Shown here: piece after piece, positions 5,680 through 38,224 of the stretch
How the letters are laid out: each line of letters starts with the position of its first letter
How positions within the stretch are numbered: the first letter of the stretch is position 1
Source of the DNA: Deltaproteobacteria bacterium
GTDB taxonomy: Bacteria; Desulfobacterota; UBA8473
DNA length: 38,224 nt
NCBI GenBank assembly: GCA_030643245.1
Contig: DAOWME010000003.1
Coordinates: 1-38,224, forward strand
Direction of reading: 5' to 3'
Notes under the pieces: generated by a model
Told to the model about the DNA's origin: nothing
Seen by the model: only the letters and a program-made list of their open reading frames with translations
Databases searched by the model: none
Made by a program: the position numbers and the translations under genes

Positions 5680-7143
5680 ATGTATATGGACTGTCCCAGG
5701 ATAGCCTTCTCCGCATTGCGAGGAAATTCAGGCAAGACACTCTTGACTGTAGGTGTGGTAGCAAAGCTCCACAGGGATGGAAAGGCCGTCTCTCCTTTCA
5801 AGAAGGGGCCGGATTATATAGATGCGGCCTGGCTGGCCCTTGCGGCTGATCGTTCCTGTTACAACCTCGATGCGTTTTTGATGGAGCGGGAGGCCCTTAT
5901 TTCTTCCTTTACAACCCATGTGAGGCAGTCCGACTGCGCCATAATGGAGGGCAACAGGGGTCTCTTCGATGGAATGGACGCACACGGTAGTTACAGTACT
6001 GCCGAGCTCGCCAAGATGCTTCAGATGCCGGTGGTTCTCATAGTCGACTGCAGTATGGCAACCCGCACGGTCGCCGCAATGGTCCTCGGCTGTCAACACC
6101 TTGACCCTGAGGTGGCCATAAAGGGGGTCATTCTCAATCGGGTTCGGGGAAATCGCCACGAATCAATTGTGCGCCGTGCTGTAGAGGAGAATTGCGGAGT
6201 TTCAATATTGGGGGCCGTCCCCAGGATAAAAGGATCAGTCTTTCCGGAAAGGCATATGGGGCTCGTTCCACCTCAGGAACACCCGGGCGCCCGCAAAGCC
6301 GTGGACAAGGCTGTAGGGATTGTCGAAGAATTCATAGATGTAAAGGAAGTATGGAAGATTGCCTTAGAGGCGCCACCTCTCGACCTGATTGATTCTACTG
6401 AAGATAGATCACAAGAGGGGATGCAATTGATGCCTCGAAAAAGGCCGCGGATCGGATTTATCAGGGATTCTGCCTTCTGGTTTTACTATCCTGATAACCT
6501 GGAGGCCCTTGAAAGACTGGGGGCCGAAATGGTAGAGTGCAACGCCCTCCTGCAGGATGAGCTTCCGAGGTTGGATGCCCTGTACATCGGAGGGGGGTTT
6601 CCTGAGACCCATGCCGAGGCCCTGGCTGCCAACTCAGGTTTCCGAAGGTCTCTGAATGAGGCAGTAGAAGATGGACTTCCCGTGTATGCGGAGTGTGGCG
6701 GGCTGATGTATCTTGGGAGAAACCTGTTAATTGACGGAAGCACTTTCCCCATGACCGGTGTCTTTCCCTTGACTATTGAACTGAAAAGAAGTCCCCAGGG
6801 TCATGGGTACACCATCCTTGAAGTTGATAAACCCAACCCCTATTTCAAAGTAGGGGAGGCCATATGCGGCCATGAGTTTCACTATTCCAGAATCGTGGAT
6901 TTAGCGGAAAAAGAGATGCCCCTGGCATTTAAAGTCAGGAGAGGATGCGGTGTAGATGGGAGAAGGGATGGACTATATTACAGGAATGTCTTGGCAACAT
7001 ACTCTCATCTCCACGTTTTAGGGAAAAAAGAATGGGCTGAGGGTCTCTTTGACCTGGCCATTTCTTATGGTCATAAGCCCGGGAGAAAAAGAGAAGATGT
7101 GCCCTTTAACGAGGGTAATCTCCCCGCTGCCCTGAATTTCTGA
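5680..7143 (+). CDS. dsrN: Siroheme amidase DsrN (CbiA/CobB-like)
   Basis: SGKT, FKKGPDYID, EGNRGLFDG, ERHMGL; GATase motifs YAECGG and GHEFHY; follows dsrD. Confidence 0.93.
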   Translation: MYMDCPRIAFSALRGNSGKTLLTVGVVAKLHRDGKAVSPFKKGPDYIDAAWLALAADRSCYNLDAFLMEREALISSFTTHVRQSDCAIMEGNRGLFDGMDAHGSYSTAELAKMLQMPVVLIVDCSMATRTVAAMVLGCQHLDPEVAIKGVILNRVRGNRHESIVRRAVEENCGVSILGAVPRIKGSVFPERHMGLVPPQEHPGARKAVDKAVGIVEEFIDVKEVWKIALEAPPLDLIDSTEDRSQEGMQLMPRKRPRIGFIRDSAFWFYYPDNLEALERLGAEMVECNALLQDELPRLDALYIGGGFPETHAEALAANSGFRRSLNEAVEDGLPVYAECGGLMYLGRNLLIDGSTFPMTGVFPLTIELKRSPQGHGYTILEVDKPNPYFKVGEAICGHEFHYSRIVDLAEKEMPLAFKVRRGCGVDGRRDGLYYRNVLATYSHLHVLGKKEWAEGLFDLAISYGHKPGRKREDVPFNEGNLPAALNF

Positions 7144-28168: not shown

Positions 28169-28372
28169 AGGACGGGGACGAAATAACTTCCCCATTTGTG
28201 CATCTCATCTTCAGGCCATCCCCCGATCGGGGTCGAGGACAGGCTTTGCCCGATCTTCAAACACAAAATCCTCAAAATAGTTCGACTATTCCTGCGGTTT
28301 TGCGTTTTCAGATCAAACAAATCTAACCTAAATCTGAGCGCCAACTTGAGGAAGTTACTTCGTCCCCGTCCC
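28169..28372 (+). mobile_element. MITE family A, copy 2 (complete; 24-bp insert at 28221-28244)
   Basis: TIRs aggacggggacgaaataacttcc / ggaagttacttcgtccccgtccc; flanks TTA and TAA. Confidence 0.9.
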
Positions 28373-28406
28373 TAAGGCTTTCAATACTTTTTCCCAGGGG
28401 GAACAT

Positions 28407-29036: not shown

Positions 29037-30890
29037 ATGATAACAGTTGGGGTACTGACGATTAGTGATAAGGGAGCACGGGGAGAGAGGGAAGATAAGA
29101 GTGGTTTAGGGATAAGAAAGTTGGTAAAGAAACTGCCGGCAAGGGTAGATGCCTATGAAGTGATCCCCGATGAGAGGAATATCATAGCCAACAGGCTAAT
29201 CGATTATGTAGATAACAGGAAACTGGACCTCATTGTTACCACCGGTGGTACCGGGGTAGCCCCCAGGGATGTGACCCCCGACGCTACGTTGAGTATAATA
29301 GAGAAGGAAGTACCGGGGATGGCTGAGGCTATGAGACTGGAGGGGCTTAAGAAGACGTCCCATGCCATGATATCGAGGGCTGTAGTAGGAATTCGGAAGA
29401 GTTCACTTATCGTCAACCTTCCGGGTAGTCCAAAAGCTGTATCAGAAAATCTTAACGCAATCCTGGCCTCACTACCCCATGCAATCGCCAAGATAAAGGG
29501 AGACAACACCGAATGTGGCCCACGACAAGGCATGGAGGGGAAACGCGTTATGCCTGAAGGAAAGTCAAAGAAGAACATTAGAGAGATCTTTGAAAGTGCT
29601 GTTGCTGCAGTGAGGCCTAAGAAGGTCGTTAGTAGAAACGTTCAGTTAATGGATAGCCTGTCAGGAGTTAAACTGTTAATAGGCGGCACGGAATATGACC
29701 TTTCAGAATATCATAGGATACACGTGGTAGGTGCCGGAAAGGCAGCGTCTTCCATGGCCCTGTCAATGGAGGGGATCCTGGGAGAGAGGATCAGTGGGGG
29801 AACGGTTACCGTTAAATACGGGCACCTGGAAGAGTTAGACATAGTACATATCAATGAAGCAGGTCACCCGATTCCTGATGAGGCAGGGATAAAAGGCACC
29901 AGGGATATCCTTGAATTGGTAAAGGGGCTCACCAGCCATGATCTGGTAGTATGCCTGATCTCCGGAGGGGGGTCAGCCTTGATGCCACTACCCTGTGAAG
30001 GGATAAGCCTTGGAGAAAAACAGGATACAACCAGACTGCTTCTGGAATGCGGGGCAACAATAAACGAAATAAACGCCATAAGAAAACATATATCTCAGAT
30101 AAAAGGTGGCAAGCTTGCCGGATATGTATATCCCGCCACCTTGGTTTCCCTGATACTCTCCGATGTTATTGGTGACAGGTTAGACGTCATCGCTTCAGGG
30201 CCAACAGTCCCGGATGAAAGCACCTTCGAAGACTGCCTTAGGATCATAGAAAGATACGGGATCGAGAAGGAGATACCCAAATCAGTCCTGACACATCTCA
30301 CAGATGGATCAAAAGGGATCGTAGAAGAGACTCCAAAGCCAGGTGATGAGATCTTCAGCAAAACCAAAAACTTCGTTATTGGAAGTAACCTTCTGGCCAT
30401 TAATGAAGCAAGAATTCAATCGGAACGGATGGGGTATAATACCCTTATCCTCTCCACTTCCATTGAAGGGGAAACCAAGGATGTGGCCAAGGTACACGCA
30501 GCGATAGCAAGAGAGGTCTTGAACTCCGGGAATCCGTTGAAAAGGCCGGCATGTATCATATCCGGTGGGGAAACTACCGTCACCATCCAGGGCAAAGGCT
30601 TAGGAGGGAGAAACCAGGAGTTTGTGTTAGCTGCCGCTATGGAGATCGACGGATTAGAGGGTGTAACCATTTTAAGCGGGGGGACGGATGGTACTGATGG
30701 CCCAACAGATGCGGCCGGGGCTATTGCCGATGCCCATACCATCGAAAGGGCAAAAAAAGCGAAGATGGATCCCTATTTATACCTTAGAAACAACGATTCC
30801 TATCACTTTTTTCAGAAATTGGACGATCTACTCCTCACAGGTCCCACCAATACAAATGTAATGGATCTCCGATTAATGATAGTGGAGTGA
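29037..30890 (+). CDS. MogA/MoaB domain fused in frame to a glycerate kinase type 2 (MOFRL) domain
   Basis: N-terminal TISD, TTGGTG.APRDVTP, NLPGSPKA. C-terminal GAGKA, AGHPIPD, ISGGGSAL, GGETTV, GGRNQE, TDGTDG, TGPTNTNVMD. Confidence 0.85.
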   Translation: MITVGVLTISDKGARGEREDKSGLGIRKLVKKLPARVDAYEVIPDERNIIANRLIDYVDNRKLDLIVTTGGTGVAPRDVTPDATLSIIEKEVPGMAEAMRLEGLKKTSHAMISRAVVGIRKSSLIVNLPGSPKAVSENLNAILASLPHAIAKIKGDNTECGPRQGMEGKRVMPEGKSKKNIREIFESAVAAVRPKKVVSRNVQLMDSLSGVKLLIGGTEYDLSEYHRIHVVGAGKAASSMALSMEGILGERISGGTVTVKYGHLEELDIVHINEAGHPIPDEAGIKGTRDILELVKGLTSHDLVVCLISGGGSALMPLPCEGISLGEKQDTTRLLLECGATINEINAIRKHISQIKGGKLAGYVYPATLVSLILSDVIGDRLDVIASGPTVPDESTFEDCLRIIERYGIEKEIPKSVLTHLTDGSKGIVEETPKPGDEIFSKTKNFVIGSNLLAINEARIQSERMGYNTLILSTSIEGETKDVAKVHAAIAREVLNSGNPLKRPACIISGGETTVTIQGKGLGGRNQEFVLAAAMEIDGLEGVTILSGGTDGTDGPTDAAGAIADAHTIERAKKAKMDPYLYLRNNDSYHFFQKLDDLLLTGPTNTNVMDLRLMIVE

Positions 30891-31031
30891 TATAGGCCGG
30901 ATGGGATACCCTCTTTAGCGGGGATAGAGCGGGGATAGTAGAGCAGGATAGGGGACGTCCGGAAAGCGCCGGGATAAACAGGCATAGAGTATGGGATGAA
31001 AGAGCCCTACATGAAAGGAGTAGCTGAACCA

Positions 31032-31292
31032 TCATGGCCCCGAGCTATGCGTCGATGACAAGTAATGACATGGCGAAGCGTAACGGTTGACGCACGGGTA
31101 CCGCTTTGAATCCGGCTTACCCTGTTCATCTGTATTGAACTCCCACACAGAAAGGGTAAAATAGTCATTTTCTTCCCATCCGTCTTGCCCTATAAGACCG
31201 GCTGTTGATGTCCCCACAAAAAAAAGCGCGGCCAGGCACAGGACAAGAGAAGCGGAATGTTTTTTTATAAGGTAGCCTCTTCTATTTCTCAT
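31032..31292 (-). CDS. Small secreted hypothetical protein (possibly truncated)
   Basis: ATG overlaps the chelatase end; basic N-terminus plus hydrophobic signal-like stretch (SLVLCLAALFFVGTSTA). Confidence 0.5.
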   Translation of the reverse strand: MRNRRGYLIKKHSASLVLCLAALFFVGTSTAGLIGQDGWEENDYFTLSVWEFNTDEQGKPDSKRYPCVNRYASPCHYLSSTHSSGP

Positions 31293-34200
31293 CGCTTCTC
31301 TCTTCAAGGATACCTTCTACCTCAAGGTATGCATCCAATAACCTCTCTCTTTCTTCATCGTTTGGTTGCCAATAACCCCTCTTGTCTGTCTCCCAAAGCC
31401 TTTTAATGATCTGTGAGGTTGCAAACGGGTTGTTTTCCAGGAGGCGTTTCCGCATCTCCTCATCAAATATGTATCGTTTTGCGATGTCACTGAAGACCCA
31501 GCTTTCAACCTTACCGGTGGTTGCTGCAAGGCCAAGGATATACTCAACTCTGTCGGATATCTTCTGTGCACCATGAAACTTATGCTCCAGCATCCCGTCT
31601 ATCCATTTTGGGTTCAGTATCCTCGCCCTCATGGATTTCTCTATGGGCTTCTTTATATCTTCCACCTGTATAAGCTCTTTGGTGGTATCGGCGATCAACA
31701 TCCGGGGCTTTTCGCCCTTCACCGATTCTATGGATTTGGCCAACCCTCCGAAGAACTCATAGTAGTGATCGAGCTCGGTTATCTCTAATTCATGCGTATC
31801 CCTCACCTGGGTGATGAGATCGACCCTCGATAGGAGGGTCTCAAAGACCTCCTTTGCAGATTCGGCATTCACATTCTCCCCGTAACCGTACTGCATGCTG
31901 TCAAGATAGGATCGAGAAAGTTCACTCTCATCCTCCCAGCGGGAGGTTTCAATAAGGGTCGTCATGGAAGTGGCATATTCACCCCTGCCAGGCCCGAAGA
32001 TGCGCAAGTAAGAAAGGTCTTTATCCTCCTTGGGACTTAGTTTTGCGGCTATCTCTTGAGAGTGTTTCTTAACCATGTTAATCTCAGGCGGTTCCTGGAG
32101 GGACGAAACGAGTTTGAACGCCTCACTCAGGAAGTCGATCAGGTTGGGCAGGGTGTCGCGGAATATACCACAGATGGTCACGACCACATCTATCCTCGGT
32201 CTTTTTAGTATGTCCAGGGGGATGACCTCCAAACCTGTGAACCATGGGCCGCTCTTTCTTACTGCCTTAAGCCCGAGGTATTGCAGGATCTGACCTATGG
32301 TTTCGCCCCTGGTCTTCACGGTTTCGAAACCCCAAAGCACCACGCTAACTGTCTCAGGATATCTGCCTTCGGTCTTCATGTATTCGGCGATAGAGGCTTC
32401 AGCGATCTCTGCCCCGCGCCTGCATGCGGCGCTGCTTGGAATCAGCCGGGGATCGAACTGGTACATGTTACATCCCGTTGGAAATACCTCCGGTGTCCTT
32501 ATGGGGTCTCCGCCGATATTCGGCAGAGTATACCTGGAGGAAAGGGCGCTCAAAAAAGCCTCTATCTCCTTGCTGTTCTTTATATTCGTATAAAGATCAC
32601 CAATATAGTCAAATACTGTCTTAACCCTTTTTCTGAAACTCCTGGGGACTGTCAGCAGCAGTTGCTCATCCGCATGGCCTTCCACCTTCTTTCCAACCAG
32701 TTCTTTCACCTGGTCTTCTATCTCCGCCAGAATCTCGTCGTGGCATCCGCCTTCTTTAACTTCACCGGGGTTTTGAAGCAATTCCTCATAAGTGAACCCC
32801 CTTGCTTCAGCCACTATCCGGTGTAGAGATTCCACCTCTCTGTCGTATCTCAAGATGAAGGTGATCAACTCGATAAGCTCTTCTTTCGAGTAAGCCTCTC
32901 CCAGAATATGGAGTCCTCTTGGGATGATAGATCTCTTTACCTCAAAGAGTGTGCCCTGGATCTCCTCTATGGAAGTATCTTCCATGTTGAGGTCTTTTGC
33001 TTTTCCACGAATCTCTTCTGATACCCTGTCCGCCCTCACGGGATCCTGGACTCTCGCTTCGTAGTATTCATGGATGAGTTCTTCTAAGTATACGAGTTCT
33101 TCATAGAGGCCTGAAGTTGTAAATGAAGGGGTCTGGTGGTTTACAATGGTGGCGTAGCTCCTTCTTTTTGCGATCGTTGCTTCGGAAGAGTTGGTGACCC
33201 AGTAGACATATATATGGGGCATATCCCCTATCAGGATATCGGGCAGGCAAGACGACGATAGACCAACCTCTTTTCCCCTAGTAAATTCAAGGGTTCCATG
33301 GGTACCCACATGAACAAGGGCATCGGCCTGGAACTCCCTGTCGATCCAGCGATAGAACGCAAGATACTGATGATGGGGGGGGAGATCGCGGTCATGGTAG
33401 GATCTTCCTTCGTCTTCATGTACCCCCCTGGAAGGTTGAATGCCGATGAAGATATTCCCCAGGATGATACCCGGGATCAAAATACCGTGCCTATCGGTCA
33501 TTATCTCCCCGGGCGGGTCACCCCATTTCTCAACCATCTCATCCTGTATACCTTCAGGAAGATCATTAAACCATTTCACATACTTCTTGACCGGTACCCT
33601 TAACCCACGTCCTGCTTCCTCCGAACACCACTGGGGGGAGTTGACGATCCCTTTCTCCAAAAGGAGATCGCTCATATCTCCCTCGGGGATTTCCACAAGA
33701 TACCCCTCGCTTTTCAATGCAGAAAGGATCTTCCTCAAACTTGAAAAGACATCGAGATAGCTGGCGTTGCCGAGGTTGTGTTCTCCAGGTGGGTAGTCGT
33801 AGATGATCAAGGCTATCCTCTTCTCCCTGTTTTCCTTCTCTTGCAAAGAAAGCCTGTTCTTTAGGCGGTTGCAAAACCTCTCCAAGCGATTGTCTATGGA
33901 AGAGGGTGTCTTCACCTCACTTTGAATATCCTCGCTGAACCCGGCATTCATAAGTCCGCTCAAGACCATAGGCTCGATACAGCCATCAAGCTCCCTGAGG
34001 GCCACGGCTATGACCACCTCGATGGGGGAGAGGCCTATCTCTGATTCTTTCCATCTCTCTATCTCGCTTTGATACATGTGGACCGGTCCGAATACGGGAC
34101 AATTCAAGCCTCTCAACATCTCAAGGGTGGGCATGGGGTCTCCGCCGAGCGGCCCGCCATTGATTCTGAAGTACTGAAGGTTTATAACGGCATCTACGAA

Positions 34201-35061
34201 GGGTTTGCCATCTTTGAAGAAGAAAGAGTCTATTGCTTCCAGGTTTGTCATGACATCAGAAAAAACAGGTACAGTGGCGACCTCTGGCTCGAGTTTTTTT
34301 ATCAAGGCATTGACCACTGGAAGGCAATCATCGAAGTGCATCCCGCCATAGAAGAATATGCCCACCTTAGGTTTGCTGTCAAGCAAATCATGGATTTGCT
34401 CAAATTCATCGATCTTTGAAAAAAACCTGTCGTACCTGGGATGATAGATCCCCGCCTTTGGTGGGATCACTGGCGGATCAAACTTGATCCTTTTCTTTCC
34501 GCCATACTCCCTGGCTAAAAGAAGGAGGAGGTTCTTGAGGTTCTGTTTGCCTCCATACTGCCAGTAATCGATGGCAAAGGCCCAGTTTCGCGCGTGTCTT
34601 ATGGTCCCAAAAGGAAGGATCTTGCCTGTCTTCTTGATCAATTCCATAATCTTCAGACCCGTGGATATGTCTATCCTGTCCACGTCAAAACCTATATCAG
34701 GTTGTCTCTCGAATATCTTACGGGCGTTGAAACTCCCCATCTTCGTGAGAGAGAGGATTTCCGTGGTCCCCCCACAGAGTGTCAAAATGGTTTTATCATT
34801 CCGGGTCAGGGATTCCATAGCCATCTTTGCCCCGCGGGTTTGTCCCCTCATGTCGAGAAGGACGATATCCGCCGCGTTAAGGTCTTCTTTCAACCGGTCT
34901 TCATCGACAAGTCCCGTATCCAACTCGTGGAGGTAGTAGTTTCTTAAGGCCACGATATCCCCATGGTCAGCCCTTATCTCCTCCAAGGCCGAGGCCAGGG
35001 AGCCTGTAGTGCACATGGTCGTTATGAGTACGATTCTGGTCTCTCTCTCTTTATTATTCAT
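31282..35061 (-). CDS. CobN/magnesium chelatase H-family large subunit
   Basis: 1259 aa; YPPG, GIQPSRG, PPHHQYLAFY, HVGTHGTLEF, EATIAKRRS, PTGCN, RPRIDV, LNPKWIDGMLEH. Confidence 0.92.
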   Translation of the reverse strand: MNNKERETRIVLITTMCTTGSLASALEEIRADHGDIVALRNYYLHELDTGLVDEDRLKEDLNAADIVLLDMRGQTRGAKMAMESLTRNDKTILTLCGGTTEILSLTKMGSFNARKIFERQPDIGFDVDRIDISTGLKIMELIKKTGKILPFGTIRHARNWAFAIDYWQYGGKQNLKNLLLLLAREYGGKKRIKFDPPVIPPKAGIYHPRYDRFFSKIDEFEQIHDLLDSKPKVGIFFYGGMHFDDCLPVVNALIKKLEPEVATVPVFSDVMTNLEAIDSFFFKDGKPFVDAVINLQYFRINGGPLGGDPMPTLEMLRGLNCPVFGPVHMYQSEIERWKESEIGLSPIEVVIAVALRELDGCIEPMVLSGLMNAGFSEDIQSEVKTPSSIDNRLERFCNRLKNRLSLQEKENREKRIALIIYDYPPGEHNLGNASYLDVFSSLRKILSALKSEGYLVEIPEGDMSDLLLEKGIVNSPQWCSEEAGRGLRVPVKKYVKWFNDLPEGIQDEMVEKWGDPPGEIMTDRHGILIPGIILGNIFIGIQPSRGVHEDEGRSYHDRDLPPHHQYLAFYRWIDREFQADALVHVGTHGTLEFTRGKEVGLSSSCLPDILIGDMPHIYVYWVTNSSEATIAKRRSYATIVNHQTPSFTTSGLYEELVYLEELIHEYYEARVQDPVRADRVSEEIRGKAKDLNMEDTSIEEIQGTLFEVKRSIIPRGLHILGEAYSKEELIELITFILRYDREVESLHRIVAEARGFTYEELLQNPGEVKEGGCHDEILAEIEDQVKELVGKKVEGHADEQLLLTVPRSFRKRVKTVFDYIGDLYTNIKNSKEIEAFLSALSSRYTLPNIGGDPIRTPEVFPTGCNMYQFDPRLIPSSAACRRGAEIAEASIAEYMKTEGRYPETVSVVLWGFETVKTRGETIGQILQYLGLKAVRKSGPWFTGLEVIPLDILKRPRIDVVVTICGIFRDTLPNLIDFLSEAFKLVSSLQEPPEINMVKKHSQEIAAKLSPKEDKDLSYLRIFGPGRGEYATSMTTLIETSRWEDESELSRSYLDSMQYGYGENVNAESAKEVFETLLSRVDLITQVRDTHELEITELDHYYEFFGGLAKSIESVKGEKPRMLIADTTKELIQVEDIKKPIEKSMRARILNPKWIDGMLEHKFHGAQKISDRVEYILGLAATTGKVESWVFSDIAKRYIFDEEMRKRLLENNPFATSQIIKRLWETDKRGYWQPNDEERERLLDAYLEVEGILEERSDEK

Positions 35062-35093
35062 CTTCTCTCTTCTCTCTTCTCAGAACTCGTCCT

Positions 35094-37382
35094 TTACATC
35101 TTAAGATTCAGGCTGAACACAAAGTTTCTCCCCGGTTGAATAAAAGAGTCATCCCATCCGTACATACAGGTCATCGGAAATGATCTGTATTTCTGATTCG
35201 TAAGGTTCTTCACTGCAAATGTCAGGCTGACATCTTGAAAGATCATAAATGACTGACACTTTAACCCCGTTCTGAAGTCATAGACCTCGAAGGCCGGGGT
35301 CTTTGATCTCTCTGTCCAGTCATCCGGGATTCTGTGCTGCCTGTCATAGATCCTTGAGCATAGTTCCGCCCAAAGTCTGCCGTCCAGAGGTCTTATGTCC
35401 TCGGTTTCATACCTGATGCCGAGAATTGTTTTGAGCGGCGGTATCCCTTCCAGAGGATCTTTTTGTATCTTGTCCTTGCCCCTGGCATAACTTATGGTGG
35501 AAAAAGCAGACCAGTTTGTCGAAACCTGGAAATCAAGGGTTGCTTCTATCCCCCGGATCTCTACCTCTCCTATGTTGTCAAAGGTGAGTACTGCCGTTTG
35601 ATCGGTCGGAACCATTAGTATGTAATCATCTATTTTATTAACGAAGCCTGTAATGCTTGCAGAGAAATCAGGATACAACATCTTGATGCCTGCCTCGTAA
35701 TTAATGCTCTCTTCTGAGTTTATCTCAGGGTTGCCCCTCAATTGGGCGCCTCCAGGCACGGCTCCAACGTAGAACCTCTCTTCCAGTGAGGGAGCCCTGA
35801 ACCCTTTTGAGAATGATCCCGTAAGGTTAATCCCGTCAGAAAGAGAGAACAGGAGGCCGATTCCGCCGGTTACGGAATCGTCTTCACTCTCTTCTTTGAT
35901 CAAATTATCCTTTGTGCGGTAGTGGTCATACCTCCCGCCGAGGGTTATCCATAAGCCATCAAATACCTCTATCTCATCTTGAACGTAAAACGCTGTGTTG
36001 TCGAAACTCCCGTCCACAAGGTCGCCTTGCGTATGTATCTCGGAGAACTGAGGAGGTAGATCCAGTCCCATGGATCCAGCAAACTGGATTACGTCTTCAA
36101 GTAGGGGTCGGGGAATGGTAAATCCCATGATTGAAATATCAACGTTCATCTCAGACGGGGCCTTGGCCTCGTCTCTGTAATATTCCATGCCGACCGTCAA
36201 CACTTGAAGGCGGATAAAATCCAACGTTGAGAGGCCTCTCGCCTGGGCGCTGTAGGTATCTGTTTCGAGATTGCCTTGAAGTACGACATTTATGTTTCCC
36301 GGCATAAGATGAGGAAAGATTGTGGTCGTATTGATATACTCCATCCTCTCCTTCTGAAAATGGGCGCTAAAATCTAATGAATCCAGCCAGAAAAAAGGAT
36401 CCCTGAACTCATAATTGAGGGTGTATGTTTCGCGATCAGCACGAGGTATATCAAAGATGCAATCAACGTCTGTTACAAGCGTCATGCCGAACATCTCCTC
36501 TTCGACATCTTTCATCTTGGTCAGGGGGGTCTCCATCTCCCCCTTAAAACTATTCACGGAAACCGCAATCGATTGCTGATCATTTATAAGATAACTGGTG
36601 TGAAGATCAATGCTGGTGTCTTTATAACTACTATGATCAAGTATTCCTTCTGGGGTTTTTACATCCCCGGACTCCTTTCTTGTTACGCCTACAAGCGAAT
36701 TGAATCCTTTTCCTCCAAACTCGAATTCTATTCTGCCGGATCTCAGGTCATTTACGCCTGCATATTTTGTGGAAAGGTTAGTGTCAAAATAGGCATGCTC
36801 GCCCTTTTGCGATTTCTTTGTGATTATGTTGATAACACCGCCCATGGCTCCGGAGCCGTAGAGAACAGTCGCTGGTCCGTGAAGCACCTCTATCCTCTCT
36901 ATCTGGCTGACATCGATCTCATTAAGATAGACTCCCCCTGTTAGAGAACTCACATGGGAATTCCACCGCTTTCCGTCAAGCAGCACAAGCACCCTGTTAG
37001 CGGAAAGTCCTCTGATTCTGGCTTTGGTGATTCCAGGTGTACCATCATGATGAATTTCAACACCGGCAACAGTCTTCAGTAGATCTCCAATATTCGCGGG
37101 GGATGTCCTCTCTATCTCTTCTCTGTCGATAACGGTGACAGACATGGGTGTATCGAATGTCGACTTTTCATATTTTGTGGCTGTTACAACTATATCATCA
37201 AGTTTGAGCGCCTTTGTCTTATTTGGCTCCTCTTTTGCTGCGTCCGGGGTCGAGGAACCTTCCATATGGGTACCATCTTTTGTGCCCGGCGCCTCAAGCA
37301 CTTCCGCGGCTGAGACCGAGAAGCTGAGTATAAGGAATACAAGTGTGGCCATCACGAAGTCTGTTATTGGTCTTCTTGTCAA
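35094..37382 (-). CDS. TonB-dependent outer-membrane receptor (heme/tetrapyrrole type)
   Basis: TonB box DIVVTAT; plug motifs IRGL..VLVLLDG and IERIEVLHGP..LYG; FRAP and NPEI motifs; PGRNF. Likely TTG start at 37382 after RBS GAGGAG, giving a signal peptide. Confidence 0.93.
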   Translation of the reverse strand: MTRRPITDFVMATLVFLILSFSVSAAEVLEAPGTKDGTHMEGSSTPDAAKEEPNKTKALKLDDIVVTATKYEKSTFDTPMSVTVIDREEIERTSPANIGDLLKTVAGVEIHHDGTPGITKARIRGLSANRVLVLLDGKRWNSHVSSLTGGVYLNEIDVSQIERIEVLHGPATVLYGSGAMGGVINIITKKSQKGEHAYFDTNLSTKYAGVNDLRSGRIEFEFGGKGFNSLVGVTRKESGDVKTPEGILDHSSYKDTSIDLHTSYLINDQQSIAVSVNSFKGEMETPLTKMKDVEEEMFGMTLVTDVDCIFDIPRADRETYTLNYEFRDPFFWLDSLDFSAHFQKERMEYINTTTIFPHLMPGNINVVLQGNLETDTYSAQARGLSTLDFIRLQVLTVGMEYYRDEAKAPSEMNVDISIMGFTIPRPLLEDVIQFAGSMGLDLPPQFSEIHTQGDLVDGSFDNTAFYVQDEIEVFDGLWITLGGRYDHYRTKDNLIKEESEDDSVTGGIGLLFSLSDGINLTGSFSKGFRAPSLEERFYVGAVPGGAQLRGNPEINSEESINYEAGIKMLYPDFSASITGFVNKIDDYILMVPTDQTAVLTFDNIGEVEIRGIEATLDFQVSTNWSAFSTISYARGKDKIQKDPLEGIPPLKTILGIRYETEDIRPLDGRLWAELCSRIYDRQHRIPDDWTERSKTPAFEVYDFRTGLKCQSFMIFQDVSLTFAVKNLTNQKYRSFPMTCMYGWDDSFIQPGRNFVFSLNLKM

Positions 37383-37415
37383 TTCAATCTCCTCTAAATA
37401 GGTCATTCCGTCTAA

Positions 37416-37717
37416 GGGGCGAGGCCGAAATAACTTCCTCATTTGTACATCTCATCTTCAGGCCATCTTTGAACGATCTTCAAACACAAAATCCTCGAAA
37501 TAGGTAAGACTATTCGGCATCCTTCATACATCGGTTTACACTTTTTAAATTATGGCTGCTGAATCTATGCCGAGACCGTTTTTTTATTCGAAAGAGTAAA
37601 CTACTTTATAGCTTTTATGAAGGATGCCGACTATTCCTGTGGTTTTGTATTTTCAGATCGAACAAATCTGACCTAAATCTGAGCGCCAACTTGAGGAAGT
37701 TATTTCGTCCCCGTCCC
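37416..37717 (+). mobile_element. MITE family A, copy 3 (with nested element)
   Basis: TIRs ggggcgaggccgaaataacttcctca / tgaggaagttatttcgtccccgtccc; TAA duplicated at 37413-37415 and 37718-37720. Confidence 0.9.
37516..37628. mobile_element. MITE family C (113 bp) nested in family A copy 3
   Basis: Perfect 13-bp TIR ggcatccttcata / tatgaaggatgcc. 8-bp duplication gactattc at 37508-37515 and 37629-37636; the empty site is present in copies 1 and 2. Confidence 0.92.
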
Positions 37718-37727
37718 TAATCTAGTG

Positions 37728-37870
37728 CCCCGATTTCAATCGGGACTGAAGACCTTCGTGGCCTTGGATACTAAATCATAAGGCCCTTAGATGGAGCAAA
37801 GTGCACAAATAAAAAGGCCACAAAGTTCTCTTTCCCCGATTTCAATCAGGATTAAAGACCTTCGTGGCCT
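37728..37870. repeat. Two 37-bp direct repeats (37728-37764 and 37834-37870)
   Basis: ccccgatttcaatcRggaYtRaagaccttcgtggcct, 34/37 identical, separated by 69 bp. Confidence 0.85.
37807..37870 (-). terminator. Terminator/attenuator hairpin in the TonB-receptor leader
   Basis: On the minus strand aggccacgaag pairs with ctttgtggcct, followed by ttttattt. Confidence 0.65.
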
Positions 37871-37990
37871 GTTAGTTTTTTACCTTGTTTAAAAAGCAGT
37901 GGCCTATCTATTCACTCAAACTTCTTGCATTCATGCAAAGAATCTTCCGGTCCTTCAGAACCGTCTTTTCTTAAGCCACCAGTTTGTATT

Positions 37991-38018
37991 ATTATAACCT
38001 TCCCGGCTGCCATGTCAA
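37991..38018 (-). promoter_or_regulatory. Consensus sigma70 promoter for the TonB-chelatase operon
   Basis: Minus strand TTGACA-N16-TATAAT. Confidence 0.75.
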
Positions 38019-38113
38019 GGATTTATTTTTTGCAAGATAGTAAGAAATATTTTTCTGTGTTATAAAGGGTGTTAAAATAATATAGTAAAACATCATAAAA
38101 ATCAATTGATTAA

Positions 38114-38224
38114 GGAGCGAGGCCGAAATAACTTCCCCATTTGTACATCTCATCTTCAGGCCATCCCCCGATCGGGGTCGAGGACAGGCTTTGACCGATC
38201 TTCAAACACAAAATCCTCGAAATA
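38114..38224 (+). mobile_element. MITE family A, copy 4 (right end cut off by window edge)
   Basis: TAA followed by ggagcgaggccgaaataacttcc; same 24-bp insert (38166-38189) as copy 2. Confidence 0.88.

Follow-up and report, generated by a model that had tools for sequence, protein, structure and literature searches.

Paired genes of a TonB-dependent receptor and an H-type class I chelatase subunit in a sulfate-reducing deltaproteobacterium: a candidate uptake-linked (de)metallation locus

What could the large subunit of a class I chelatase, encoded directly after a TonB-dependent outer-membrane receptor, be doing in a sulfate-reducing bacterium? The question is raised by a stretch of 38,224 nucleotides from a Deltaproteobacteria bacterium (UBA8473; assembly GCA_030643245.1), which represents one whole contig (DAOWME010000003.1, here C46) of a metagenome-assembled genome (MAG) of 295 contigs and 85% completeness and is called the window below; G000 designates its genome, C-numbers contigs, L-numbers the loci compared and P0001 the window chelatase. 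The original prediction for the two genes was an undescribed system for import and de- or re-metallation of a tetrapyrrole, composed of a heme-type receptor and a stand-alone chelatase and closely parallel to HmuS of Bacteroidota. Uptake-linked (de)metallation stays the best reading, because the chelatase is not of the CobN type, CbiK and CbiD are encoded in the genome and the pairing with the receptor is conserved, while the heme-type receptor, the stand-alone enzyme and the close parallel to HmuS had to be given up. With moderate confidence, the pair is regarded as the first part, conserved among relatives, of an operon for TonB-dependent uptake, whose enzyme would act as an ATP-driven class I chelatase machine, more likely for nickel or cobalt than for iron or magnesium.

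The chelatase gene (31282..35061, minus strand) encodes a protein of 1259 aa, an H-type (porphyrin-binding) subunit of a class I chelatase according to the Pfam domains CobN-Mg_chel (1165.6 bits) and DUF3479, the head domain. The gene of the TonB-dependent receptor (35094..37406, minus strand) contains the Pfam domains Plug (106 bits) and beta-barrel (183.4 bits); its open reading frame (ORF) of 782 aa is open to 37442 and is separated from the chelatase ORF by 32 nt. ORFs and Pfam domains thus bear out the pair as predicted, except for the end of the receptor, which had been placed at 37382. The first 12 codons of the receptor ORF lie inside a repeat of about 100 nt, and the true start is probably Met13 at 37406, giving a signal peptide that resembles that of the L020 orthologue.

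Among solved structures, the chelatase matches ChlH best (647 bits), followed by CobN (467.5 and 441.2 bits) and HmuS (372.9 bits). Of the NCBIfam models, BchH model TIGR02025 is passed (974.8 vs a cut-off of 829); the score falls short of the cut-off for two other BchH models and for all six CobN models (the latter 556.8–785.4 vs 822–1926). In a FastTree phylogeny of 73 rows, with midpoint rooting only, 44 rows, the protein among them, form a clade with support 99. BchH/ChlH is the sister group of this clade (support 89), and CobN (21 rows) and HmuS (4 rows) form clades of their own. The rows comprised 32 of 120 listed proteins, picked for names and spread, 36 chelatase ORFs of fetched loci and five references from annotated records: HmuS of a Prevotella hmuY-R-S-T-U-V operon, two BchH from bch clusters and CobN beside cob genes. 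BchH genes of bch clusters were fetched as references because two cyanobacterial rows labelled ChlH (P0100, P0102) lack the motif of Synechocystis ChlH; the window chelatase lies outside the clade of these two BchH. Placement outside the CobN clade and the scores of the CobN models agree with the earlier view that the protein is not a canonical CobN. Members of the clade are anaerobic bacteria and archaea (Asgard groups, Thermoplasmata, Methanothermobacter), and public records label relatives of the window chelatase ‘magnesium chelatase subunit H’. The nearest listed relatives include proteins binned to Thermoplasmata (72% identity) and to several Asgard archaea (51–55%), which points to exchange of genes between archaea and bacteria or to errors in binning.

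Two motifs characterize the active site, HVGTHG at residue 584 and ELDHYYEFFGG at residues 1096–1106. The form LDHYYE(F/Y)xGG was found in 43 of the 44 clade rows, the remaining row, L080, being cut there; the first motif reads HxG(T/M)HG across the clade, with NIGTHG in one row. In the HMMER alignment the second motif matches LDHVYEFMGG of HmuS (9d26), while the counterparts are DHYFDTLGG in true BchH, DSDDYxQxxGG in true CobN and GCCCYFGTHGG in another CobN type of anaerobes. The last sequence occurs in tier-2 relatives and in Methanocaldococcus.

The window chelatase is predicted to be cytoplasmic, since it lacks a hydrophobic anchor (no 19-residue window reaches a hydropathy of 1.8, and no transmembrane-like segment is present) and a Met-rich insert (at most 4 Met per 40 residues vs 14 in Prevotella HmuS), and ChlH is the only match of its residues 1–300, HmuS giving none at E up to 10.

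The receptor has the general features of TonB-dependent receptors: the plug, the barrel and a signal peptide, read from the translation as a hydrophobic leader ending SAA/EV. The signature of TonB heme receptors includes a conserved His between the FRAP and NPNL boxes. In the window receptor this region reads FRAPSLEERFYVGAVPGGAQLRGNPEI, and His is absent between FRAP and NPEI, as had been noticed earlier. The best NCBIfam models, TonB-hemlactrns (278.1 vs 323.75) and TonB-hemin (276.8 vs 316.85), are below their cut-offs, so that with the missing His the designation ‘heme-type’ is weak. Among 14 receptors scored, TonB-hemin was top-listed for 9 of the 11 adjoining clade chelatases, among them the receptor of L079, which follows a cobalamin riboswitch. 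Of the Met-rich loop insertions described for the receptor, the three Met-containing stretches are present, but they are only partly kept in orthologues.

A contig scan with the window chelatase yielded only two loci, and relatives were sought by a wider genome search and one metagenome scan. The resulting 20 genome loci of the clade comprise the window, L020 and 18 loci obtained by searching 401 genomes of the phylum. A receptor gene adjoins the chelatase gene in 6 of the 20 and is present in the fetched stretch in 10; in the seven nearest bacterial loci (window, L020, L104–L108) it is adjacent or one small ORF away without exception. The predicted pairing is therefore conserved. In L020 (receptor 79.5%, chelatase 87% identity) and L104 (84.2% and 92%) the pair is kept while the flanking genes differ, and the identities of the two proteins fall together (84%/92%, 79.5%/87%, 58%/60%). 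A ChlD/ChlI-like gene was found in 15 of the 20 genome loci, and nikR stands beside three. In 67 metagenome loci with a clade chelatase, many of them on short or archaeal contigs, custom hidden Markov models (HMMs) detected within three genes ChlI/D in 30, a BtuF/FecCD-type part in 19 and a receptor in 9. In locus L080 (G387:C42:1-11300), from the same phylum, the clade chelatase is preceded by two NifH-like genes, a nitrogenase-like/PCP_red fusion gene and a gene resembling CbiX/ferrochelatase, a neighbourhood that looks like a tetrapyrrole-reducing gene set.

The absence of ChlI and ChlD genes, stated in the original prediction, is true of the window but not of the genome. No ChlI/ChlD-like genes are present on the window contig, all genome matches being on other contigs; among these, the short contig C221 encodes ChlI (354 aa, 438 bits) and ChlD (671 aa, 455.5 bits). 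Their orthologues close an operon that begins with the receptor and the chelatase in L104, a metagenome contig with 91% DNA identity to window positions 31287–37334. This operon contains, on one strand and with short gaps, the genes of the receptor, the chelatase, a LolA-like protein, two FtsX, an ABC ATPase, a 428-aa protein, ChlI, a 117-aa protein and ChlD, the ChlI and ChlD being 90% and 82% identical to the C221 pair. The same genes are present in L107 in a different order. The 428-aa protein belongs to no Pfam or NCBIfam family, and the LolA-like protein to no NCBIfam family. With I- and D-type AAA+/VWA subunits encoded on C221, in the L104 operon and in 15 of the 20 relatives, the enzyme is not stand-alone. 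The window retains only the first two genes of the L104-type operon: nucleotide homology to L104 stops at 31287, at the chelatase stop codon, and the end of synteny with the full operon of relatives is marked by a fragment of a group II intron domain (30999..31141, plus strand) in the gap between the chelatase and a convergent gene (RF02005, E 2.1e-7, 35.3 bits vs a gathering score of 49, which is not reached). Loci L093 (G002:C1) and L096 (G001:C24) contain an operon of a receptor, BtuFCD, CobN, ChlI and ChlD with the leader hairpin described below in front; this CobN shows Cys (ECCSF/DCCCF) at the positions occupied by DH or DD in other clades.

A candidate regulatory element of the locus is a leader hairpin with a U-tract (GGCCACGAAGG ... 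CUUUGUGGCC UUUUU), found upstream of the receptor gene at 37807..37871 (minus strand; 77.1 bits with covariance model R1). A second copy, of the 5′ half only, at 37715..37766 (minus strand) contains the CCACGAAGG motif and an inner CCCGAT-TGAA-ATCGGG hairpin; no closing stem was seen in it, and it was left unscored by R1. The 65-nt model R1 was built from 13 instances, with 95.9% of cells paired and both-sided changes in 6 of 13 pairs. Over 90 loci, R1 matched 15 at E up to 0.01, including four outside the training set, all just upstream of a receptor or chelatase operon except L129. In the genome of the window only three strong sites are present: that of the window operon, that of C176, preceding a 268-aa ORF and a methyltransferase, and that of C263, preceding a receptor and a Nik-type ABC importer whose permeases are above NCBIfam nickel cut-offs (426.4 vs 350 and 306.3 vs 300). 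In five other genomes, 8 of 9 fetched hairpin sites lead into ExbB/TonB sets, receptors, FecCD importers or an ECF transporter; in the ECF operon L183, the one scored of two with the same gene order (the other is L180), the fourth gene is of the NikL type by NCBIfam. This distribution fits a regulon of nickel or cobalt uptake, with nickel favoured. A stretch of about 110 nt upstream of the hairpin (window 37800–37990, minus strand) is also conserved in the window, C263, C176 and two sites of genome G002. Since small hairpins occur in it, GGTTC-TGAA-GAACC for example, the regulatory RNA may extend beyond the 65 nt of the model.

Taken step by step, the proposed mechanism begins with the receptor, which would carry a bulky metal chelate, most likely of the tetrapyrrole type, across the outer membrane. 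After passage of the inner membrane, the chelate would meet the putatively cytoplasmic, macrocycle-binding H-type subunit. This subunit, with the ChlI/ChlD AAA+ motor presumed to be that of C221, would then move a metal ion out of the ring or into it. By analogy with HmuS, we lean towards the view that an imported complex is stripped of its metal, rather than that a salvaged ring is re-metallated. The regulatory evidence, namely the leader hairpin, the cobalamin riboswitches at the head of the chelatase operon in 5 of the 20 genome loci and nikR beside three, points to nickel or cobalt rather than heme iron; as the metal, nickel or cobalt is also more likely than magnesium.

Several observations weigh against this proposal. 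An inner-membrane importer is absent beside the window pair, the L020 orthologue operon contains no I/D gene, and the operon, truncated in the window, could be on its way to loss. Orthologues of the C221 pair, 80–92% identical, follow a different, Cys-type CobN in genomes G002 and G001, which makes the assignment of the C221 motor to the window chelatase uncertain. The active-site motif is that of HmuS, used there for heme iron, and loci L075 and L076 adjoin FeoB, L075 also an iron-dependent repressor gene, with iron as a possible metal. Neither a riboswitch nor nikR was detected in or around the window, L020 and L104–L107. The leader element looks like a bidirectional terminator and could be a conserved terminator; the training pattern of R1 contained its conserved bases, the invariance of which is thus by construction. 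The trees are FastTree-only with midpoint rooting, and the genome is a MAG of 85% completeness.

A more specific version of uptake-linked (de)metallation is put forward tentatively, as a possibility that falls well short of the general proposal. The operon would be a scavenger of nickel (or cobalt), whose receptor takes up metallo-tetrapyrroles of the environment, for example nickel porphyrins, F430-type compounds or corrinoids, and whose ChlH-like cytoplasmic subunit, driven by ChlI/ChlD as an ATP-powered de-chelatase, frees the metal. It would belong to a regulon of receptors, TonB systems, Nik and ECF importers and chelatases under a leader RNA so far undescribed. If true, the large orphan ‘CobN/ChlH’ clade, with its members from anaerobic bacteria, methanogens and Asgard archaea, would thereby gain a function.

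The alternative that survives best, unlikely as it is, is an ordinary CobN-type cobaltochelatase of B12 synthesis, in which ChlI/ChlD replace CobS/CobT and the receptor merely supplies cobalt or corrinoids. A cobalamin riboswitch heads the chelatase operon in 5 of the 20 genome loci (L064, L076–L079) and precedes the neighbouring receptor in L079 and L108; CbiM/CbiQ genes lie near the chelatase in several loci; and predicted cobalt-specific TonB receptors, as well as substitution of CobST by ChlI/D, appear in the excerpted text of reviews (PMC7689651, PMC3595025). Against this stand the six CobN models, all below cut-off, the position of the chelatase outside the CobN clade and its lack of DSDDYxQxxGG, while the window, L020 and L104–L107, as noted above, show no riboswitch; in no scanned locus do riboswitch and hairpin occur together. 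On the window itself Rfam found nothing at gathering score, and at E up to 1 in 30800–38224 only the group II intron fragment and a chance snoRNA row. Moreover, CbiK and CbiD of the anaerobic B12 route were found in 5 of 5 genomes tested, including that of the window, so that cobalt enters early and the substrate of CobN should not arise; for this reason the chelatase is not simply the cobalt-insertion step of B12 synthesis. As a replacement of CbiK it was likewise rejected.

A cytoplasmic counterpart of HmuS, stripping iron from heme imported by the receptor, is improbable. The motifs HxGTHG and LDHYYEFFGG match His-538, His-1209 and Glu-1212 of HmuS, the last two residues belonging to a motif described in the excerpts of PMC12583661; the best models of the receptor are of the heme family; and the FeoB neighbourhoods of L075 and L076, with the iron-dependent repressor of L075, point the same way. 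On the other hand, the chelatase has neither N- nor C-terminal anchors nor a Met-rich insert, its N-terminal 300 residues match ChlH only, and the receptor lacks His between FRAP and NPxL. Genes hmuY, hmuT, hmuU and hmuV are missing, and relatives have AAA+ partners, whereas HmuS needs no ATP according to the excerpts of PMC12583661. A scan of 10 upstream regions for Fur boxes (up to 6 mismatches of 19) and 6-mer inverted repeats found nothing in common and no Fur-box-like site in the window; the sole weak match, with 6 of 19 mismatches, lies across the receptor start codon of L020. The chelatase also belongs to a different clade, the HmuS-clade member of this genome being a second CobN-family paralogue on contig C122 (locus L028), which groups with Prevotella HmuS and a CbiZ-linked, riboswitch-controlled gene of G002.

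The C122 paralogue is cut at its 5′ end and has DNDD in place of the His motif; the 464-aa ORF after it appears at its start to resemble a corrinoid iron-sulfur protein. In G002 (C279, loci L097–L098) two CobN paralogues with N- and C-terminal anchors each follow a BtuF-CbiZ fusion gene, the first being followed by DUF2162, ExbB-like and DUF2149 genes, and cobalamin riboswitches precede the whole cluster. In position, the ExbB-like and DUF2149 genes correspond to hmuU and hmuV of the Prevotella operon, where the gene after hmuS is annotated as hypothetical only.

As improbable as the HmuS counterpart is the interpretation of the pair as a decaying remnant, in which the rest of the operon was lost by rearrangement and the two genes are no longer useful. 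It would account for the end of L104 homology at the chelatase stop codon beside the intron fragment and for the repeat that landed in the leader. The genes of the LolA-like, first FtsX and 428-aa proteins have no tblastn match in the assembly (85% complete), and the second FtsX and the ABC ATPase have only weak paralogue matches of 24–40% identity on other contigs; custom HMMs likewise did not find NikR, the LolA-like protein and the 428-aa protein in this incomplete assembly. Both ORFs, however, are intact, as is the leader hairpin, and dN/dS against two relatives is 0.14–0.15 for the chelatase and 0.28–0.30 for the receptor, both genes therefore being under purifying selection; the missing genes are possibly unassembled.

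A magnesium chelatase H subunit (BchH), as in the automatic annotation of relatives, is very improbable in spite of the TIGR02025 score above cut-off, ChlH as the best solved relative and the names in public records, since the protein lies outside the clade holding both BchH of bch clusters, its nearest relatives are non-phototrophic archaea and anaerobes, and the window contains the dsr, apr, qmo and sat genes of a sulfate reducer and no bch genes.

The remaining features of the window concern the host and the assembly. A nearly whole set of sulfate reduction genes is located at 2915–25147: dsrAB-like genes, a CbiA/CobQ-type amidotransferase gene, DsrC, dsrMKJOP-like genes, aprBA, qmoABC and sat; because of these genes the host is, as predicted, a sulfate reducer. 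The prediction that bch genes are absent from the window is borne out by its annotation, the search for bch genes having covered the window and not the whole genome. The same claim for cob genes is nearly right, the exception being the CbiA/CobQ-type amidotransferase at 5680..7143, just after two NIR_SIR (dsrAB-like) genes, which we take to be DsrN. A gene at 29037–30890 (plus strand) encodes a 617-aa fusion of a MoaB/Mog-type molybdopterin-binding domain and a glycerate-kinase-like DUF4147 plus MOFRL protein; no Pfam family was matched by the 91-aa ORF at 31032..31307 and a 126-aa protein. The short repeat between the leader and the receptor start (37410..37510, about 100 nt; 620 BLAST rows on many contigs) recurs in the window at 1–152, 28179–28375 and the contig end (38110–38224), and also upstream of the receptor in L104. 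It is about 100–190 nt long, with hundreds of copies genome-wide, often at contig ends; about 60 nt from it, a part is found again in the opposite orientation. The repeat resembles a MITE or REP-type element and is the probable cause of the fragmentation of the assembly.

Compared with known systems, the locus resembles several and coincides with none. Its closest working likeness is the hmu system (hmuYRSTUV; PDB 9d26; excerpts of PMC12583661), in which an enzyme of the same superfamily, encoded directly after a TonB-dependent receptor gene, acts on imported cargo. The motifs HxGTHG and LDHxYEFxGG, the latter with its His/Glu pair, are common to both, and the window chelatase also contains the body motifs of HmuS, HFG(T/A)HG and LSLDHxxEFMGG. 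Membership in HmuS fails on four features. HmuS is anchored in the membrane and faces the periplasm (hydrophobic segments 2–27 and 1437–1463 in Prevotella) and carries a Met-rich insert, all absent from the window chelatase, in which the positions of the head/neck heme ligands Met-79 and His-254 are unalignable, residues 1–300 aligning only to ChlH. The excerpts of PMC12583661 also describe for HmuS a second heme site, a requirement for NADH and not ATP, and the partners HmuY/T/U/V, none of which is seen in the window system; of the operon, the receptor alone is common to both. Relatives of the window chelatase, in another clade, carry ChlI/ChlD motors. The close parallel to HmuS drawn earlier therefore gives way to a looser one, the enzyme being putatively cytoplasmic, without the Met-rich insert and of a different clade.

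BchH/ChlH with BchI/ChlI and BchD/ChlD form the sister clade, with the best sequence and PDB scores and the same ChlH-type N-terminal head domain, and I- and D-type AAA+ partners are encoded in the genome and in operons of relatives. The host, however, is not a phototroph, and bch genes are absent from the window; the motif reads DHYYEF in place of DHYFDT, and genes of the window type show linkage to importers and to regulatory signals of Ni/Co or B12. CobNST of aerobic B12 synthesis shares a class I chelatase large subunit and, in some relatives of the clade, control by cobalamin riboswitches, whereas the window chelatase is outside the CobN clade, below the cut-offs of CobN models and without the CobN motif, in a host that uses CbiK.

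On plasmid pSZ77 of Geobacter lovleyi, an anaerobic relative, a CobN-family gene without CobS/CobT is flanked by genes of TonB-dependent receptors and ExbB/ExbD/TonB; in the excerpted text of the 2012 description (PMC3403914) its role is called unknown. By this description, the ExbB/ExbD neighbours suggest a membrane-anchored, HmuS-like type rather than a cytoplasmic one. With such pairs, and with orphan homologues in non-phototrophs (excerpts of PMC3595025), already in print, the locus cannot be called undescribed without reservation; the claim holds in so far as such orphan CobN/ChlH clusters are listed as unexplained by the HmuS authors (PMC12583661, section 21) and nothing specific on the function of this clade was found in the literature. 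The locus is thus a conserved, uncharacterised variant of class I chelatase systems, truncated here; the intact operons of relatives are better test objects.

Anaerobic bacteria, methanogens and Asgard archaea commonly encode orphan CobN/ChlH homologues, the function of which is unclear according to the HmuS group (excerpts of PMC12583661). The window locus and its relatives tie one orphan clade to importers of chelates in the outer and inner membranes, AAA+ motors and Ni-, Co- and B12-linked control. If the machine harvests metal from tetrapyrroles, nickel or cobalt would be obtained by a new route in sediments and in communities that cycle methane and sulfur.

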